A stretch of 64,000 bases of DNA, taken from Lama guanicoe. Lineage: Eukaryota. The stretch lies in NCBI GenBank assembly GCA_013239625.1, contig MU053881.1, forward strand, positions 1,116,001 through 1,180,000, written 5' to 3'. Numbering within the stretch: position 1 is the first letter of the stretch; each line of letters begins with the position of its first letter. Positions 31,593 to 49,787 of this stretch are shown piece after piece. Below the pieces are notes generated by a model. The model did not search any database. It had not been told where the DNA came from and saw only the letters and a program-made list of their open reading frames with translations. The translations under genes were made by a program, and so were the position numbers.

Positions 31593-31682
31593 GAAACACC
31601 TCCGATCCCTCCAAGAAGAGCTACGTGGTTCAGTGGCTGTCGCGACCGGACCCCGACTCTCCAGCCCAGAAGACGTCGTCAA
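31593..31682 (+). CDS. ADAMTS2: ADAMTS2 exon 21, linker before the PLAC domain
   Basis: gcccag|GA, A|gtaacc (weak donor); [30 protein letters not shown]; phase 1 at both ends. Confidence 0.92.
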
Positions 31683-33241
31683 GTAACCGGCCCGTTTATA
31701 ACTCTGCCTTTGCCCTCCAGTGCATGCCCTGCGCCTTGTGGAGCTTGCCGTGGGCGCCCCTCCTCTCTTTCTATGGAAAACTCCCCTGACTCTTCCTGAG
31801 CGCTCTCTTGGTTGAATCTGTTTTCTCCGGGCCTCTGTGCTCGGCTGTCTCCTTCGGAGCCGCCTGGCCGCCTGGCCGCGAGGGCCAGCCTCACAGAGGC
31901 ACGCCCGGGGCGCCGGCCTCTTGCGGGGGCGCCAGGACCCGGTGATGGCTTGTAAAGGGGCAAAGATCTGTCGTGGTGCTGGAGGGGCCCGAGGCCAAAG
32001 TGCACATGTGACCGCTTGGTGACCGCCTCGCGGGGCCGCATCCTTCCAGGCTGGAACTGCGGGTCGGAAGTCGAGGGGGAGCCCGCCGGCCCCTCTCACA
32101 CGCAGCCTGCCAGCGAGGCGAGCCCGGAGGGGCCTCGGGCATGCGCGCTGCGCTGCCGTCCGGGCGCCCGGCCCGGTGCCGGCAGTGCGTCGGGGGCTCC
32201 CCGGCCGCCTCTGCTGCTGCTGCTGCAGCTGCCCCTGTGCTCAGTGTGTCCTCCTGACTCGTGCGCCTGCGGCCTGCTTCCTGTGGCCTTTGTGTCCAAC
32301 TCACACAGCCCTTGACCCCCCGCGCCCTGTCCCCTTGGGGGTTTGGGTCAAGCGGAGGAGGCGGGGAAGGTGTCCCTGCAGGGGACCTTGGGACGCACCG
32401 CCACTTCCTTCTCTGTCGGTTCGCTCTAATGGCCTTTGTCATCGTGTGCACACGACCCCATCCACGGGGTGAGAGAGTGAGAGTGAGAGGCTGTCTGATG
32501 TGGATGCGACCCCCCACCCGTGTGAACAACTACAGAATTACCTCAATTTTTATTGCTTTTTTGCTTAGATAAAACTATGTAGAAGATGCCTTAAAGTTGA
32601 AAGGTAACAGTTGGCGGCTAGCTCCAGCTTCCGAGGGGGGACGTGAGCCAGGCAGCGGGCAGGCAGTGCGGGTCGAGGGGGAGGTGGCCGGCTCACCCAC
32701 CTTTTGGCCCAGGGTCCGGTTTCCCGGCCCAGGCGGCCCAGGTCCGTGGTCCTCGGGGCCTGGCCCGCCGGCGCTGACTGTTGCTGGAGCCTCTCGGGGG
32801 CTGCCTTACACCAAAGGGCGACTGGCCCGGCCCTCGGCGTGACCGGTGTAGCACTCCGCCGGTCACCCCCGCGCCCTGCTCGCGGCACCCCCTGGACCGC
32901 GCCAGCCCTCCCGGCACTCGTTACTGTTATGTACATACTCGGTGCCCACACCAACTCTCACGACTGTTAACTCCCAACTTTGGCCGAGGCGATGCGAGGG
33001 GCACGGTGGCTCCGGGAAGGTGCGGCACGGCCCTGGCCTTGTGCTCTGTCTGTATGCACTTTGGTTCATCAGGGACGTCTTGTTAGTGTTTTGTTTGTAT
33101 TTAATGACGCAGCCTATAAGGTCCCACCGTCGTCGCTTCTCCGGTTTTTTTATGAGACAACGTTAGTGTGTGCCAAAGTGACTGTGAAAACGACCTTTTA
33201 CTCCTACTAACGGTGGGAGACTCCTTGTCATGCATCCGACA

Positions 33242-33253
33242 AATAAAAATAAA
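33242..33253 (+). terminator. Tandem AATAAA-AATAAA intronic polyadenylation signal (candidate)
   Basis: aAATAAAAATAAAcg followed by a G/T-rich tract, inside an otherwise very GC-rich intron. Confidence 0.55.
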
Positions 33254-34250
33254 CGTTCCGTGAAACTGGGTGCCTGGGTGTGGCAGGCTGCGGCCTCCTC
33301 GTCGTCACCTCCGCGGCCGACGGTGCCGGAGACAGAGGCTGTCGGGGCCGTTCTGTTACACTTCGCTCCTCGCTTTCCGCGTCAGTGACCGTCCTGCCGG
33401 CCCTCCTCCTGCCCGACACGGGTACCTAGGGCCCACCCGCACGGAGGCCCGCGCGCCGCCCCGGACACCGCGCTGCGATTTTGTGGTGTGACGGCTAGTG
33501 CTAGGCAAGCCCCTCGCGGGGACGCCTGGGCCCCCTCCTTGGACTAAGGTCTCACTGTTGGGCAAAGGGCCCCTGGGGAGCTTCTCTCCGACTTTGGGGT
33601 CCGTGCCTGTGGAGTGGGAATATGGGGTTGGTACCCGAGACGGGGTCCAGGTCACTGTGCCCCGAGCCACCCTCAGGCCACAGCTCTCAGCCCTGGGTTA
33701 CCTGTTCAGGGAGGGAGCGGTGCCTGTCTGGCCCAGGTAGGGGCTGGCCAGCCCTAGGGGAGTCTGGGTCGGGGAAGAGCAAGCTGGCGGTGGCTCTGGG
33801 CAGCCAACCTGCAACCTCCATGTCTCCCGAGGCCTGCCTTCAGAAGCCACGGGGCCTGTGTGTCCGCTCCCTTTATGGACGTGGACCACACACAGGTCAG
33901 CATCCAACAGGGACATCCAGATCTGGGGCCTGGGCCATGTCCTGCCAGGGAACCCCTCTCCCTCCCTTTCCTGTGAAGGAGTCCAGTGCTGGGAGGAGGG
34001 AGATCGTGAGACAGGACGATCCCCAGCGCCATGGAGACAGGCGTCGGGAGACAGGGCCAGGCCCCCAGTGGCAGCCTGCAGGTGGGAGTCCCAGGCGCCA
34101 TGGCTGGGTTCAGCCTGCCCCAAGCTCTGGGCATTGAGAGATTCCCAGCTCAAGAGACAGGAGACCCAGACAACTGCGTCCACTCAGTCTCTCTGCCCAG
34201 ACAGATCAGAAGGAATCCCCGCAGAAGGCTGCCCACCTAGAGCCGCGGGA

Positions 34251-34350
34251 GGGCCACCAACTGCCGGGGGACAGCCCGGTGCGTGGAGGGCGCCGTGGGC
34301 GGGCCACCAACTGCCGGGGGACAGCCCGGTGCGTGGAGGGCGCCGCGGGC
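34251..34350. repeat. Tandem duplication, 2 x 50 bp
   Basis: gggccaccaactgccgggggacagcccggtgcgtggagggcgccg(t/c)gggc twice, one mismatch. Confidence 0.95.
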
Positions 34351-35206
34351 GGGGGTGCCACCCATTTTCTTTAACTTGCCGCATGACCTTTTGAACACTG
34401 AAATGGTGATGAGGCTTGAAGTTTTCTCCATCCCATCCTTTCCCAAAGTTTCCGGGATGGAGGTGATTTCGTTTAGGTGGTACATAAAAGTGATCTGAGT
34501 TCCACTGAGCAGCCCCTTCCTTTATGCAAGCTTGGGACAAAGTCTCATTGGGCATCAGCTTTGACGTCTGCCTCCCACTGGCTCCTTTCCCTCCAGCTCA
34601 GAGCTTCGCAGACAGGAGGCTTTCCCTAGGATCTGAGAAATTAAACTTGACTCTCAAATTAAGGGGACTGCAAACTTTTCTGTGTATTCATGATTAGGGT
34701 CCCCTTTATTTATCTCACAAGTTTTCCATGAATAGCAGTAGTATGAAGTTTCCTTCTAAAATAAATTTTAAGTTAAGAAGGAGTTCATTTAAAGGAGGAA
34801 ACCACTCAGCAACTAATAGCACCAGCAGGATTCGGATTTGGCCAAGATTGTGGGAGTGGCACCCAAGTGACTTCAACTTACAAACAATGGGTTTCGTCTC
34901 CCCAGTTTGCTGTTCACTTGAAGGCGGTAGGTCCTGCTGGTTCGCGGCTGCTGGAAATGACTGAAGACCAATTATTAGAAAACCGAGGTGATCATTTTGC
35001 GAGAGATCCTTGGTCAGGCAGTGCCTCAGAGCAGGTGTGTTGCTCAGCCTTCTGGTATAATTTGCATCTCTCTCTGCTAATTCATACTACTGAAAGATAC
35101 ACAGCCTTTTAAGAGTGATTGGTAGCAATTATTTTGAAATTTTTTGAGGCTGATACTAGCATAGCCAAGCTCTTGGCCAGTGGCTTTCTCAATTATCTAT
35201 TCATCC

Positions 35207-39190: not shown

Positions 39191-39657
39191 AGGGCCGCTG
39201 CCAAGGCGACAAGTCAATGTTCTGTAGGATGGAAGTCTTGTCTCGCTATTGCTCCATCCCAGGCTACAACAAGCTGTGCTGCAAGTCCTGCAACCTCCAC
39301 AACCTCACCGACGTGGACGACGGGGCAGAGGCGCCGCCCGGGAAGCACAACGACATCGACGTGGACGTCGAGGCGCTCGCGCCCACCCTCCCAGTGCCCA
39401 CCCTCATCGTGGAGGTGGAGCCTCCACCAGGCACACCCCTCGAGGTGCCCCTCAACGCCTCCAGCTCCAACGCCACCGAGGACCACCCGGAAACCAACGC
39501 TGTGGATGTGCCCTACAAAGTCCACGGCCTGGAGGACGAAGTCCAGCCACCCAACCTGATCCCCCGACGACCGAGCCCGTACGAAAAGACCAGAAACCAA
39601 AGAATCCAAGAGCTCATTGATGAGATGAGGAAGAGAGAGATGCTCGGAAAGTTCTAA
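39191..39657 (+). CDS. ADAMTS2: ADAMTS2 last coding exon 22, PLAC domain and C-terminal tail, stop TAA
   Basis: tttcag|[36 protein letters not shown]...[18 protein letters not shown]. Confidence 0.97.
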
Positions 39658-39799
39658 TAAAGTGGAAAGATAGCATCAATAGCATTTTTTTCCTTGCTTA
39701 TAGAGATATTCCATGGGATGGCAACTCCGGTGCTGTGGAGATGAAGTCAGAATTCCCGGTTCCAAAAGGCTTTGCGAAAACAAAGAGGGAGAATGTTAA

Positions 39800-39846: not shown

Positions 39847-42690
39847 TGGTTGTGAGCAGGTGGCACCTAGGTTGGTACGTGTGCTCCCCAGCCCTGGAGT
39901 GTTCTGAGTCCTGTACCGGGGCTGGGTGTGGGGTGAAGGGGAACACAGAGGTGCGACAGTGCCCGTCAGTGAGAGGAGGCAGGAGGGCTAGCTCAGAGAG
40001 AGAAGGCGCTTGCCCCGAGTTTCTGAGCAGTGGTTGGGGATCTCCCTTCCTTCGTGGTGACAACCCCTGCTGGAGACGAGGGAATTTCCAACCCGTCTCC
40101 AGACCGAGGTACAAGCCCCCTTGGGGACTCTTAGGAGAAACAGTGATGTATCTACTAAGTTAACCTGCCACTAAGATGAGCGCAGTGAAGTGGAGGCTGT
40201 GAGCCCCACCCAGGGCCTTGGAGGGCCGGGGTGAGTGTGACGGCCAGCGGGGGCCACGCCCCACCGTGAGAGCTGGCCCTTGCTGCCAGGCAGTGTGCTT
40301 TCTCAGTAGAAGGCTGGAAGTGTTCTTGTGAAAAGCCTCCATCTTAAAGATCAACTCAAAATACGTGACGGGTCTGGGCGCCTGCCGGGGTCTGAGCCAC
40401 CAGGCTGCAGCCTCCGGTCCCCAGGCGTGGCCGGGGGCGGTCTCGTGCACGAAGGACTTCAGGAACGCCATCCGATCCGTCTGGTGCTCTCGCGCTGCAT
40501 TTGAGTGTCTCAACCAAACCCGAGCTGTGAAGCTGCCCATTTCCTTCTGGGAAGGTGTCAGGAATGCCCTAACTGGGACTTGAGGATAGATGGAAACACG
40601 TTTTCTACTTGAGGAGAAGACAGCGGTGGGGCCGGCCACGCCTAGGCTCTCCCAGGTCCCCTCTTCACTAACCCTGGTCCTGCTTATCACCTCTGGCCGG
40701 TCTGGCCTCAGGCCCAGGGCTCCCCAAAGAGGCTCTCCCCTCCCCCAGGTGCACCGGAAGGATGAGGGAGGCATGCGTTCTGCTGGAGAGTCCAGTGAGG
40801 GGGCAAGGCCTGCAGCCCCCACTCTGGGGCAGGAGTGCTCCCAGCAGGGTGGGGCCTGTGGGGGCTCAGGTTTGCTCCTGAAGACCAGCTGCTTCGCTTG
40901 CAGGGCCCAGGCTTGCCAGCCCTGGGGAGTCCCCTCGAGTCCTGTCCCCACCTCCATCCCTTAGAAGTGCCAGCTGTGAACTGCCTGACTGGGCCTCCGA
41001 TGGGGGGGCCGAGGGTGGAGGTGGGGAGAGGCTGCTTTATCCTTTGCTCTTTCCAAACTTTAATAACTTCTATCTTTAGCATCATAGTGCTTTATGAGCC
41101 TGATGAGAATGAGAGAGAAATAGGAAGGGACTGGGGGGAGGGGGAATGGGAAGACAGTGGCTGATTTTTCACCTCTGCCTGCATTGATATGTCCTGAACA
41201 AGCAGCTTAAACTTGCCAAAATTGCAAGACCTGGGCACATTAGCTCCTTAGCGGGGGCCTCCCTAATTCTGAAGCTTTTCATGTTCAGGAAAGTTCTAGA
41301 GCTTTTGGATTCTCACCAGTCATAGATCTTAGAGAATTCTTTCTTGTTTCATTCCCCGTCCTGTGGAGGAGACTACCAAAGCTCAGGATAACACCCTGAT
41401 AGCTACTTCTTGTTGAGTTTTGAGGTGCTAAGTGCGTCTGTCTGCACCTGTGCGTGGGTGTCAGCATGCCTCTGCGCGTGGTCTAAGGGACAGAGTAAGG
41501 GTGCAGGAAACAGTGCAGGGACATCTGGGGCGCTGCTGGGATGATCACTCACCTCCCCGTCTCCCCGGCTCAGCCTGCCTCCCTCCTCTCTGCCGCCGTG
41601 TTCCCCACTTGCTCATGTGTGCCCCAGTGTCTCAGAGGACTTTGCTGGCTTCCAAGAACCAAACTGGAGAAATTTCTGAGTATCTCTCATGGTATCACTT
41701 CCTCAGCGAGATGCGGTGGGAAGCATTCCTGCAGCCCCATCTCTCCCCATTGGGAAATGGGTCCACGGCTTTCCCTCATTGGTTGAACTCACGGCAGCTG
41801 GTGCTACTTACGGGCGGAAGGGCTGGACCGTGCTTGCTAGGGTCCGTCCTAGAATGTCAAGGAAACTCCAGACCAACGTGACTCGGTTTACCCAGCCTGG
41901 GGGCCACAGGTTGGGAAGACTCCCTCCCCGGATTCCCACAAAGCCAGGCTGTGCGTCTTGGCAGCTGGAAGCCTTTGACGGGGGGCCCTAGGTGGGGCCC
42001 TCCCAGGGCTCTTCTTGTGCTGCAGGAAGAAAGGTGTCCTCTGGGAACTGTAGGTCAGTGTGGCCATGGCCGCACATGCCATACTCAGTGCCTTGGGCCA
42101 TATATCCACAGAGATCTGTAGGACCAGATGGTCCTCAGAGGTCTATCTAAGAAGGCAGTGCTCACCACTCTGAGACACTGCAAATCTCTGCTGAGCTTGA
42201 GGTAGCTGGAGAGCTGGCTTAGCAACAGGCCTGAGCTGCCAGCGGTGGCCGAGGGGCCCCTGCAGCCTGGGGGAGGCAGAGGACGTCTTGGGCGGAGGTT
42301 CCCTAACACCAGGTTGAGGCTCAGAGGTCCTCTCTGTCCGTGGCTCTGAAAGTCAGCCGAGGGGCCTGAGAGTCACTGCGTGTCTGTAGGAGACTTGTGC
42401 TGGAGTTTTGGGACCTGGCTTTCTGATCTACTCCTTTTGGAAAACCCATGGAATTTCACATATAAGCCTTTTGTGTGTACTTTGTTTTTTGTTTGTTTGT
42501 TTGGAGTATACAAATGGTGCTCAATAGCCAAGTCTTTATCAGATGAAGCATTATGACTATGCACTCCTGTCTGCCAGGCAGCCCCACACCATGGTGCTGA
42601 ACGCACATGACATTTTATCTTACTGATAACAGCAATCAACACACTTGTTTTTCTGTATACTCAAATTTGGCTTCTTGATTTTTATAACTT

Positions 42691-42696
42691 ATTAAA
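42691..42696 (+). terminator. Probable distal ADAMTS2 polyadenylation signal (ATTAAA)
   Basis: Hexamer in AT-rich context with downstream tgtgtgtttgtt. Confidence 0.6.
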
Positions 42697-43224
42697 GTCA
42701 AAATGTCTATGTTTTTGCACATCATACCTGTGTGTTTGTTACCTTGTCTACGTCTGTTCCCCCTCGCCACCCTGAACTTGGGCAGACGGAAGGATGTGCT
42801 GCCCTCGCAAAGCCAGGAGGTGTGGGGGGACACTGGTAAGCTGTGAGTCAAGGCTGCTCAGGGCAGGATCCCGAGAAGGGCAAGAGGCACCCAGAGGCCT
42901 GATCCTCTCCCATTCCCCATGGGGTCAGTCCTCCAGCCAACATGGCGTAGCCAGTAGCTCCTAAGTCACCCTGCAGGTCAAGGAGGAGGTGAGGACTCTG
43001 CAGACACCTCCTCCTCCCTCATTACCACCCCACTTCTCTCCTCTAATTAGGGTTTCCAGGAAGAACTGCTAGATGCTGAGTTAAATTTGAAATTCAGTGA
43101 AATGCTCTTGGATCTTAGAATATTTATGTTGTAAGTACAGTTAATATGTACACTGATATACATGTATATGCATATATATATATATATATGAATACAGTGG
43201 ATCACTTGGTTTGCTACAGACATT

Positions 43225-44225
43225 GTTAAAAAAAATAAAAAGCAAAGCTGCATAACTAGGATAAGATATTTGCAAATCGCTTATTTGACAAGAGACTTGA
43301 TTACATACTATATAAAAACTCTCCAGTCTCAGCATTAAACAAACAAACAAACAAAAAACCCAAACTGGGCAAAGATTTGATAGACACTTCACTAAAGAGA
43401 AATGGATGGCAAATAAGCACATGAAAAATAATCGAAATCATTAGGCTTTAGAGAAATGTTTTTTAAAACCACAATGAGACAATATTACCAACCTATTAGT
43501 GAGGTGGGAAGCCCCATGAAAATGACGGCAGGACTCTCAGGCAGGGCCACTACTCTCCTGCCAGCACCATCTGGTTCCCTGGCCCAGCAGCATTATCTCG
43601 CTTTTTGCCTCTGAAACAGCTTCTAGGAGAGTGGAACTTAGCCGTAAAATTCTATTGGTTCCCTGAGCTAGCTCCTGATTGGTCCATTTGTAGCACCTCA
43701 TTTGCATGGAGCTCACTCCTGGTTTGTCCATTTCTATCACTATTGATTGGTCCATTTCTACAAAGCTTGTTCCTAAATAGACAACTTTGTTGCATCTTAT
43801 TTGCATATGATGTTTCAAAGTGTAGACTGGCAGCCTATAAAAGCCTGTGTAACCCTACAGACAGGGTCCAGAGTTTGGAGCGTTAGCTCCTCTGGGCCCG
43901 CTGGCGTAATAAACATGAGTTCTCCAACCCTGTGAATGCTGCTTGGTCTTTCACCCGGATCCAGGTTGCTGTCACCACTGAGCTGTAACACACTTTGCTG
44001 CAACATTAGCAGGATTAAAATGAAAAACAAACAAGCAAAACAAATACACCCTGACAATACCAAGTGCTGGTAAGGAAGTGGAGCAATGGGAACCCTCCTG
44101 CACTGATCCTGGTAATGCAAAAATGGAATGACTAGTCGACAGTTTGGTAGCCTCCTATTACGTTAAATACTCACCTTCAACATGACTGAGCAATCCTATT
44201 CCCGGGAACTTACCCAATAAAAACT
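43225..44225 (+). mobile_element. L1M ORF2-end fragment, interrupted by the LTR at 43500-44005
   Basis: gggcaaagatttgatagacacttcac, aataagcacatgaaaa, accaagtgctggtaagga...gtggagcaa. Confidence 0.8.
43500..44005 (+). mobile_element. Young ERV1-class solo LTR, 506 bp
   Basis: TG...CA ends, perfect 4-bp TSD ttag (43496-43499 and 44006-44009), TATAAAA 43836-43842, AATAAA 43908-43913. Confidence 0.9.
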
Positions 44226-48387: not shown

Positions 48388-49787
48388 TTAAATTATCTGA
48401 GGTGAATTAAACGTCACAGGGCTTATATCTTCTAAGAAATCTCCAACCCCATATTCCTTCCATTTATAGAGCTTCTCTTTACTGTGGACTTTTTTGTGTC
48501 TACAAAGGTTTGACCTGTAACTGTAGGCTTTCCCACATTCCATGCATTTGTAGAGTTTCTCTCCAGTGTGGATTCTCTCGTGTTCAGTTAGGAATGAATA
48601 CTGGCTGAACGCCTTTCCACACTGATTACACCGGTAGGGTTTCTCTCCTGTGTGAATTCTCTGATGTCTGTAAAGGTTGGATTTGCAACCAAAGGCTTTC
48701 CCACACTCTCTGCATGTGTACAGTTTTTCCCCAGTATGCATTTTCCGATGCTCATTAAACGATGAATACTGGTTGAAGGTTTTCCCACATTCCTTACACT
48801 GATGGGGCTTCTGTCCGGTGTGAATTCTCTGATGTTCAATGAGGGTTGAGATGCGTGTGAAGGTTCTCCCACATGCCACGCACGTACACAGTTGTTCTCC
48901 AGTGTGAAGCCTCTGATGTTCAGCCAGGGATGTAAACTGGCTGTAACTTTTCCCACATTCACTACATGTATAGGGTTTCTCGCCTGTATGGATTCTTTGA
49001 TGCCTACGAAGTTTTGCTCTACAGCTGAAGGCCTTCTCACACTCACCGCATTTATAGAGCTTCTCCCCAGTGTGGATTCTCTGATGCATCGTGAGGGTAG
49101 AACACTGGCTGAAGGCTTTCCCACACTCCTTGCACTGATAGGGTTTCTCTCCAGTGTGAACCCTCAGGTGCTTGATGAGGGTTGAACTGCTGCTAAATGC
49201 TTTCTCACATTCGTTACATTTGTAAGGTTTCTCTCCAGTATGAATTCTCTGATGGGCAAGAAGAGATGATCTGTGGCTGAAGGTTTTCCCACACTCATTA
49301 CATCTGTAGGGTTTCTCATCAGTATGAATTCTCTGGTGTTCAATAAAATGAAGAGCCTGGTTGAAGCTTTTCCCACATTCACTGTAAATATGAGGCTTTT
49401 CTCCTGGGTACATCTGGAAATATCTCATTAGATCAAAATTCTGTTTAAAATCTCTCCCCAGAGTATAATATAAATTGGGTATCCTTTCTATAGGAACACT
49501 CTGTGGTGTAACAAGAACTGTATTTATAAACAAGCCTTTCCCCAGCTCAAAACTTGTCTGGTTCCCATCTCTGCTGATGGTTCTCCTGTGTGAAGCCACC
49601 GTCTGCCCAGGAGCTTTCTTCTCTTGCTCCTGTTGTATCCTGCCCTCAAATTCCAAAGCTCCTCCCAATCTGACATCCAAGTGACCAAACTTCATGGATT
49701 TTCTCTGCGTTATTCCCTGAGATGTCTCTTCTATAGAACTGTCCTGTTTCGGAGGCAGTGCTTCTATTTCAGGCCATGTCTTAAAAT
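48388..49787 (-). CDS. ZNF354C: ZNF354C zinc-finger exon: spacer, 1 degenerate and 10 intact C2H2 fingers, stop
   Basis: ttctag|AT acceptor in frame with ORF 48388-49695; fingerprints such as HRSSLL, QCSTLT, CRAKL, QFTSLAE, CKSNLYR, YRSNLCR match ZNF354C/KID3 as recalled; adjacent to ADAMTS2 as in human 5q35. Confidence 0.93.

Follow-up and report, generated by a model that had tools for sequence, protein, structure and literature searches.

ADAMTS2 removes the N-propeptide of procollagen, is mutated in dermatosparaxis Ehlers-Danlos syndrome and is established as a secreted protein. In other genes the location of the product depends on how the 3' end is made: in acetylcholinesterase (R, H and T ends) and NCAM-120, intron read-through versus an alternative last exon sets whether the protein is soluble or anchored by glycosylphosphatidylinositol (GPI). 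ADAMTS2 itself is said, by Colige in 2005, to be more active once its C-terminus has been removed by proteolysis. A splice variant of ADAMTS4 with a unique C-terminus also has higher activity, according to the part of the review available (PMC8275829). The present analysis concerns the 3' part of ADAMTS2 in the guanaco, Lama guanicoe, within a stretch of 64,000 nucleotides (hereafter the window; GenBank assembly GCA_013239625.1, contig MU053881.1, positions 1,116,001 to 1,180,000 of the forward strand), and in particular positions 32541-33275 of that window. A preliminary description made from the letters alone took this interval for an alternative last exon whose product lacks the PLAC domain, ends in the residues NKTM and escapes miR-29. 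The interval is better read, with fairly high confidence, as the distal 3' untranslated region (3' UTR) and poly(A) site of a different PLAC-less isoform, in which translation runs through the unspliced donor of exon 21.

The reviews, in the parts consulted, give only a long and a short ADAMTS2 form, or isoforms in general (PMC3712723, PMC8275829, PMC13005478). The short form (ENST00000274609.5) is likewise produced from an intronic poly(A) signal of ADAMTS2, as the available text of PMC3712723 states; it ends far upstream, without the spacer and most TSP1 repeats, whereas the window form keeps these and alters the last exon only. A closer relative is ENST00000518335.3, which excerpts of PMC11541570 present as an ADAMTS2 transcript formed by intronic alternative polyadenylation without loss of any Pfam domain, and as enriched, with the short form, in normal versus tumour tissue. 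As ADAMTS2-203, ENST00000518335 is raised in Alzheimer brain (PMC12996523, in the portion accessible). The retention of all Pfam domains fits the loss of exon 22 alone, because PLAC scores below the Pfam cut-off (PF08686, 20.6 bits against 26.4). The read-through isoform probably corresponds to human ENST00000518335/ADAMTS2-203: both are intronic-polyadenylation forms of ADAMTS2, although the available parts of PMC11541570 and PMC12996523 give no C-terminal sequence, conservation, function or NKTM form, and the identifier ENST00000518335 has no match in eight supplementary files of PMC11541570. The isoform is already annotated; how deeply it is conserved, and the anchor-like character of its tail, seem not to have been studied. 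The tail, an anchored ADAMTS2 and the NKTM exon are described nowhere in the literature searched, which did not cover subscription journals. The ADAMTS4 variant and truncated ADAMTS2 resemble the form proposed here in that C-terminal loss alters the activity or location of an ADAMTS protein. They differ in losing matrix- or cell-binding parts or in arising by proteolysis, whereas the window form is specified by the gene itself and acquires a hydrophobic tail that is conserved.

The window carries the 3' part of ADAMTS2 on its plus strand, the start of the gene lying outside it, and tblastn places 16 exons there. The gene had been named correctly in the preliminary description: the exon near 29.2 kb, used as a query, retrieves 99 homologues of which the named ones are nearly all ADAMTS2, and orthology is supported by the exon series from metalloprotease to TSP1 repeats, the PLAC tail and best matches named ADAMTS2. 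Exon 21 ends in a phase-1 donor (CAA/GTAACC at 31682), 6 of whose 9 positions agree with the U1 consensus. Left unspliced, this donor lets the exon 21 frame run on to an in-frame intronic TGA, in the window as in a bird, and AATAAA hexamers at 33242 and 33248, conserved in the bird, follow the read-through stop within the same intron. The parts concerned are as follows (exon numbering as in the preliminary description).

31593-31682, plus strand: exon 21 of ADAMTS2, 90 nt, from the tblastn exon map and translation.
31682-31789, plus strand: read-through coding extension by translation, 35 codons and the stop TGA (31787-31789), ending YGKLP and supplanting PLAC and the C-terminal tail.
31790-33270, plus strand: 3' UTR proposed for the read-through isoform, some 1.5 kb long, its end estimated from the hexamers, with TGGTGCT at 31974-31980.
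39191-39657, plus strand: coding part of the canonical last exon 22, stop TAA at 39655-39657, absent from both short forms.
About 39208-39291, plus strand: PLAC domain within exon 22 (Pfam PF08686).

Evidence that the read-through frame is a genuine protein end comes from a survey of homologues. The initial 99 proteins, two tail-seeded searches and three cluster look-ups together yield 293 proteins, clustered at 90%, with the listing capped at 15 members for clusters of as many as 631. Some of these proteins were retrieved by searching with the tail itself, and the proportion of read-through to canonical ends is therefore no estimate of usage. Among the first 99, seven end after read-through of the exon-21 donor and none ends in NKTM. 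Exon 21 is present in 229 of the 293 listed proteins, 165 of which continue into exon 22 and 64 of which read through. The joined sequence of exons 20 and 21 occurs in 147 of 314 proteins: 132 are canonical, 13 end in the tail, and 2 start the tail and then run on. Outside this pattern stand two more full-length tailed forms, from a bat and a caecilian (P0217, P0276). Spliced proteins that carry the tail number 15, all from other vertebrates and including P0147, a single open reading frame (ORF) in a Logan contig of 1,923 nt where exon 20, exon 21 and the tail are contiguous, which therefore implies a spliced RNA. Since the read-through frame ends both spliced protein models and a spliced contig, 32541-33275 is read as distal 3' UTR. 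This places the supported protein end in the 35-residue tail at 31682-31789, outside the interval in which the preliminary description had sought it.

The named clean cases are twelve, from apes, a tamarin, a cat, a bat, five birds, a coral snake and a caecilian. The ape models, entered as 'ADAMTS2 isoform 4, partial' (orangutan PNJ18667.1, chimpanzee PNI26166.1), share 91% identity with the window across exon 21 and the tail. The other mammals are the tamarin (KAK2118393.1), Prionailurus (GAB5566592.1) and Phyllostomus (KAF6092076.1), the birds are Molothrus (XP_066416030.1), Zonotrichia (XP_026647205.1), Melozone, Melospiza and Aquila, and the remaining two are the snake Micrurus (A0A2D4K5U3) and the caecilian Geotrypetes (XP_033783176.1, isoform X4). 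A length of 35 residues and the position of the stop are constant in mammals, birds, snake and caecilian. A hidden Markov model (HMM) search finds 27 matches among 1.84 billion representatives. They extend the tail to fish-like sequences: the spliced P0308 and P0311, whose best named match is a teleost ADAMTS2, carry a related variant of 43 residues, and the unnamed fish-like ORF P0301 has a 35-residue tail ending GKLP. Four matches (P0024, P0299, P0302, P0312) cover exon 21 only, and three (P0304, P0305, P0307) were dropped as unrelated. Pfam holds no family for exon 21 plus the tail, and the ESM Atlas gave no usable match for the tail. An AlphaFold model of P0143 from a 13-sequence alignment has a mean predicted local distance difference test (pLDDT) of 41.9, low even in the TSP1 part, and no structural claim is made from it.

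For orthologous DNA, a metagenome scan of 204 candidate stretches left one locus, L001, on which all DNA conservation reported here rests; it is called a bird from its tail, which equals that of Melozone P0048. Over 36 codons the window and L001 align without insertion or deletion and with the stop in register (15 codons identical, 7 silent, 14 replaced). The tail frame scores best of the six (BLOSUM 118 versus 57-95), and random placement of the 31 substitutions in 20,000 trials gives P=0.001 for the BLOSUM score and P=0.026 for identity.

Several points weigh against a coding tail. The named tailed sequences are mostly gene predictions, which may run through a donor, and many Logan matches are ORFs on unspliced DNA. 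An unnamed mammal-like ORF (P0145) and a whale model (P0004) diverge within the tail and lose its end, as if frameshifted or deleted, either by lineage loss or by error of assembly or prediction. Third-position bias is weak, the mismatches at the three codon positions being 10/6/15 in the tail and 5/5/17 in exon 21; a run of 22 nt just past the donor (31695-31716) is identical in the bird, synonymous sites included; and frame +1 is likewise open in both species. Patchy bird conservation also continues for about 60 nt beyond the read-through stop (31790-31850). The two stretches, 31695-31716 and 31790-31850, are possible elements controlling use of the donor. These features could be explained if the frame were no functional protein end at all, being conserved through overlapping splicing elements and translated by annotation default. 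This explanation, and with it a tail that is not really coding, is very improbable given the fixed 35-codon length and stop from mammals to the caecilian, the conservative replacements, the hydrophobic end kept in fish-like tails and the spliced contig P0147. Because third-position bias is weak and the 22-nt identity includes synonymous sites, splicing elements seem to share the constraint, and the tail is read as protein constraint superimposed on them.

Downstream of the tail, a blastn comparison of L001 with the interval between exons 21 and 22 returns three strong blocks: exon 21 with the tail, 32520-32607 and 33035-33189. The second, of 90 nt, is 85.6% identical (E 8e-21). The UTR blocks are colinear in the two species, and the following parts can be distinguished.

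32520-32607, plus strand: AT-rich conserved block, with CTCAA at 32542-32546, a U-rich tract, AG at 32567-32568, a variable 11 nt, TAG at 32580-32582 and GTAA at 32604-32607.
32922-32937, plus strand: conserved TACTGTTATGT run, from motif search and bird alignment, overlapping the Pumilio-type TGTACATA (32930-32937).
33035-33189, plus strand: UTR block 73% identical to the bird (E 5e-17), with GCACTTT kept and the complements CACTTTGG (33057-33064) and CCAAAGTG (33173-33180).
33226-33253, plus strand: putative intronic poly(A) signal, conserved TGTCATGCAT followed by tandem AATAAA; bird AATAAA at L001:9931.

The bird keeps GCACTTT and, after TGTCATGCAT, a single AATAAA; the exact Pumilio element and a miR-96 8mer at the same position are not kept in L001. 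Colinear blocks closed by TGTCATGCAT and AATAAA are what a conserved 3' UTR with its end near 33270 would show. As observation, the preliminary description of 32541-33275 is confirmed: every motif it listed lies at the coordinates it gave, including GCACTTT (33056-33062) and the miR-96 8mer GTGCCAAA (33170-33177). The AT-rich island has a G+C fraction of 0.31 at 32520-32610 against flanks of 0.69 and 0.71, and the acceptor ending at 32568 (ttgcttag) is strong, with pyrimidines at 16 of 19 positions and no AG over 31 nt; the word CTCAA resembles a branch point. The tandem hexamers are present as described, although the GT-rich tract said to follow them is modest. As interpretation it is partly supported, in that a conserved intronic 3' end exists and transcripts ending there would lack the PLAC domain and the C-terminal tail.

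The AT-rich block at 32520-32607 admits other uses. The preliminary description splices exon 21 (31682) to the acceptor at 32569, with cleavage near 33270, for a secreted PLAC-less ADAMTS2. Joined in phase 1 to exon 21, the exon does read NKTM and a stop (TAG 32580-32582), and the acceptor is one of only 3 among 249 YAG sites of the intron to pass both cut-offs (pyrimidines and AG-free zone). Acceptor, stop and hexamer, whose conservation had been proposed as a check, are all kept in the bird: identity holds in 48 of 50 columns as far as the AG, falls to 4 of 11 just beyond it and returns to 25 of 29 over the stretch TAG to GTAA, with the in-frame TAG 11 nt past the AG in both species. However, no exon-21-bearing protein has such a four-residue ending (0 of 229 among the matches listed, some of which the 90% clustering could hide), the peptide changes from NKTM to KEEF in the bird with the stop at equal offset, three kept stop bases inside a conserved run are weak evidence, and conservation extends 25 nt past the stop, where a terminal exon does not need it. 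Use of this acceptor is tentative, and it can coexist with read-through: the NKTM exon may possibly be a second use, or minor product, of the same poly(A) site. Somewhat better placed, though short of being the favoured account, is a 3' UTR element of RNA in which a U-rich protein-binding site lies in a hairpin, the variable 11-16 nt forming the loop and the AG and TAG being incidental. The conserved-variable-conserved pattern is that of stem, loop and stem; positions 32538-32607 of the window fold at -19.1 kcal/mol (z -4.1, 0 of 200 shuffles as good, with z inflated by bounds chosen post hoc), with pair probabilities of 0.56-1.0 in a 360-nt context, and the bird fold with tight bounds shares the outer arms. 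Against this, the bird counterpart has z -0.2 when tightly bounded, z +1.2 when the bounds are widened, and a pair probability of 0 in context. The stem shows one-sided changes only and no compensatory change between the two sequences compared, window and bird, and Rfam returns no family (a single match of 21.5 bits, against a threshold of 50, is taken as chance). Conservation of the block fits a real acceptor with an unconstrained four-residue end, and it fits a hairpin with a variable loop too.

A further use would join the block to exon 22 as a regulatory splice unit. The second donor noted in the preliminary description (AAG/gtaaca at 32603/4, 21 nt past the stop) is present. It would delimit either a 35-nt stop cassette (32569-32603), whose stop lies 21 nt from the last junction and is likely outside the 50-55 nt rule, or an extended exon 21 with its stop 814 nt upstream of the junction, leading to decay. 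In favour, the bird has GTAA at the corresponding position, each of the two donors agrees with U1 at 6 of 9 bases, and conservation runs from the acceptor through to the donor. The cassette differs in length, however (35 versus 36 nt), the bird donor AAT/GTAAAT lacks the G at -1, and neither protein nor transcript supports the unit among the sequences examined, which leaves it improbable. As for miR-29, TGGTGCT is indeed absent from 32583-33270, as had been said, but no site in these 688 nt compares with 0.064 expected, so the absence is uninformative. The read-through 3' UTR carries one such site in each species (window 31974, bird L001:8129), and the long canonical UTR five in the window (40482, 41424, 41799, 42515, 42592) and five in the bird. 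Escape from miR-29 is rejected for the documented isoform, and could hold for the NKTM form only. For comparison, miR-29a lowers ADAMTS2 mRNA and protein, with no sites mapped in the portion of the report consulted (PMC7359459).

The sequence of events favoured here, with read-through of exon 21 at its centre, would be as follows. The exon 21 frame continues to the TGA, and the read-through form is transcribed in other vertebrates, judging by spliced models and one spliced contig, and presumably also in the guanaco. Cleavage near 33270, suggested by the conserved hexamers, would turn exon 21 into a composite last exon of 1.7 kb, in competition with use of its donor and splicing to exon 22, 5.9 kb further on, for the PLAC form. 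The read-through protein would retain the catalytic domain and four TSP1 repeats and be about 120 residues shorter. The block at 32520-32607 likely tunes the choice, whether by folding into an RNA hairpin or by offering a second acceptor, which would give the NKTM form with an unchanged poly(A) site. In the last and weakest step, the tail is predicted to act as a C-terminal anchor signal that tethers the enzyme to membranes. The poly(A) site could then take part in a three-way switch: splicing to exon 22 would give the PLAC form, retention of the 886-nt segment an anchored form, and splicing to the 32569 acceptor a soluble PLAC-less form ending NKTM.

Published rules for GPI signals, as set out in the accessible parts of two papers, ask for small residues at omega and omega+2, about 10 polar spacer residues, a hydrophobic end and 20-30 residues overall (PMC7125958, PMC2571997). 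The tail contains one such candidate.

31700-31708, plus strand: candidate omega, omega+1 and omega+2 residues Asn-Ser-Ala, for a predicted signal of 28 residues by the published rules.

Of 18 tails (8 of them cut at Trp, on the assumption that the gene caller had read TGA as Trp), 16 have an omega-type triplet at a distance of 26-29 residues from the C-terminus, which agrees with the small-residue and length rules, although the pattern is permissive. The spacer is polar or charged in bird, snake, caecilian and fish-like tails (K..HR, KR..HQ, RS). Mean Kyte-Doolittle values of the last 20 residues reach 1.41 in fish-like tails, against -1.1 and -1.4 in canonical ends, and the fish-like tails have diverged in sequence while maintaining the hydrophobic end. 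Other observations count against an anchor. The fish-like P0300 and P0301 have no triplet at 26-29, and mammal tails have an uncharged, partly hydrophobic spacer in place of a polar one. Hydrophobicity is modest in the window (0.62) and in tetrapods (0.37-0.71), a level reached by 13% of 381 junk ORF ends from the window, 36 of the 381 having an omega triplet too. The near-invariant W-x-L-P and the terminal GK[LF]P also suggest a specific motif rather than a signal that can be discarded. Some form of membrane or pathway retention, GPI included, is on balance favoured. Of its two parts, GPI transfer at the N/S 26-29 residues from the end is a tentative reading, and an uncleaved tail held in the membrane or in the secretory pathway is a rather unlikely one. 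A soluble binding motif, or the mere removal of PLAC, is itself doubtful, falling between these two.

The tail would differ from acetylcholinesterase, in which the read-through form is soluble and a spliced exon carries the GPI signal; in ADAMTS2 the read-through itself would be the predicted anchor signal. No literature combining ADAMTS2, PI-PLC and GPI-anchored proteins was found. In tendon, N-proteinase activity occurs early in the secretory pathway and in a longer-lived intracellular pool, the enzymes not having been detected directly, as the available part of PMC3430002 reports; nothing on ADAMTS2 isoforms appears in the part of PMC11239934 consulted. The full proposal would be an ADAMTS2 that has been GPI-anchored since early bony vertebrates, the first such case in a secreted family, with the poly(A) site acting as the three-way switch and the anchored form supplying tendon with long-lived intracellular or cell-surface N-proteinase activity; taken as a whole, it is doubtful. 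A conserved membrane-holding tail, if real, offers a source to test for that activity and would make the changes of ADAMTS2-203 in tumours and in Alzheimer brain meaningful at the level of the protein. Antibodies, constructs and knock-ins directed at exon 22 would overlook the read-through form. If the tail is inert, what is left is an annotated isoform made by intronic polyadenylation, its UTR well conserved.

Within that UTR, CACTTTGG and CCAAAGTG form an exact complement of 8 bp in both species, extending to 12 of 13 pairs and overlapping the miR-17 (GCACTTT) and miR-96 sites. This complementarity (P=0.015 by shuffling conserved runs) is a possible alternative reason for the conservation of those sites. 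The overall folds are no better than shuffles (z -0.2 and -0.65), the pair probability is 0 in the wider window context, and the helix dominates only in the bird context, so that it is kept as a lead only. Long-range pairing among the four conserved blocks is significant in both species for none of the six block pairs, and a conserved 28-mer has no match in viral contigs. A word search with 32400-33400 listed 24 sequencing runs; the fraction of its words present is 0.29-0.32 in 14 RNA or guessed-RNA runs, from a related organism or a metagenome, and 0.85-0.96 in 5 runs of unknown kind, and these runs are not used as evidence.

The canonical 3' end and its surroundings add some minor observations.

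42654-42719, plus strand: probable end of the long canonical 3' UTR, a bird-conserved block with ATTAAA at 42691-42696.

This block is 79% identical to L001:17466-17531, contains TGTATA and ATTAAA, and is probably where the long UTR has its distal poly(A) site. At 39655-39700 the canonical stop shares bases with a further AATAAA (TAATAAA, 39656-39661), beyond which comes a U-rich tract. As a proximal poly(A) site, this hexamer could yield a full-length protein from a message that has hardly any UTR and lacks miR-29 sites. In the bird an AATAAA falls inside the last codons (L001:12739), at a position different from that in the window. A tandem duplication (34242-34353; 50-nt unit, 2.2 copies, 95%) follows the intronic poly(A) signal at a distance of about 1 kb. 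At about 43500-44000 an insert resembling a long terminal repeat is seen by eye, with TG...CA ends, repeated CCAAT-type boxes, TATA and AATAAA (43908), amid L1-like sequence. Further on, a tandem array with an 84-nt period (48521-49381) fits C2H2 zinc fingers on the minus strand, as in a neighbouring ZNF gene facing ADAMTS2.

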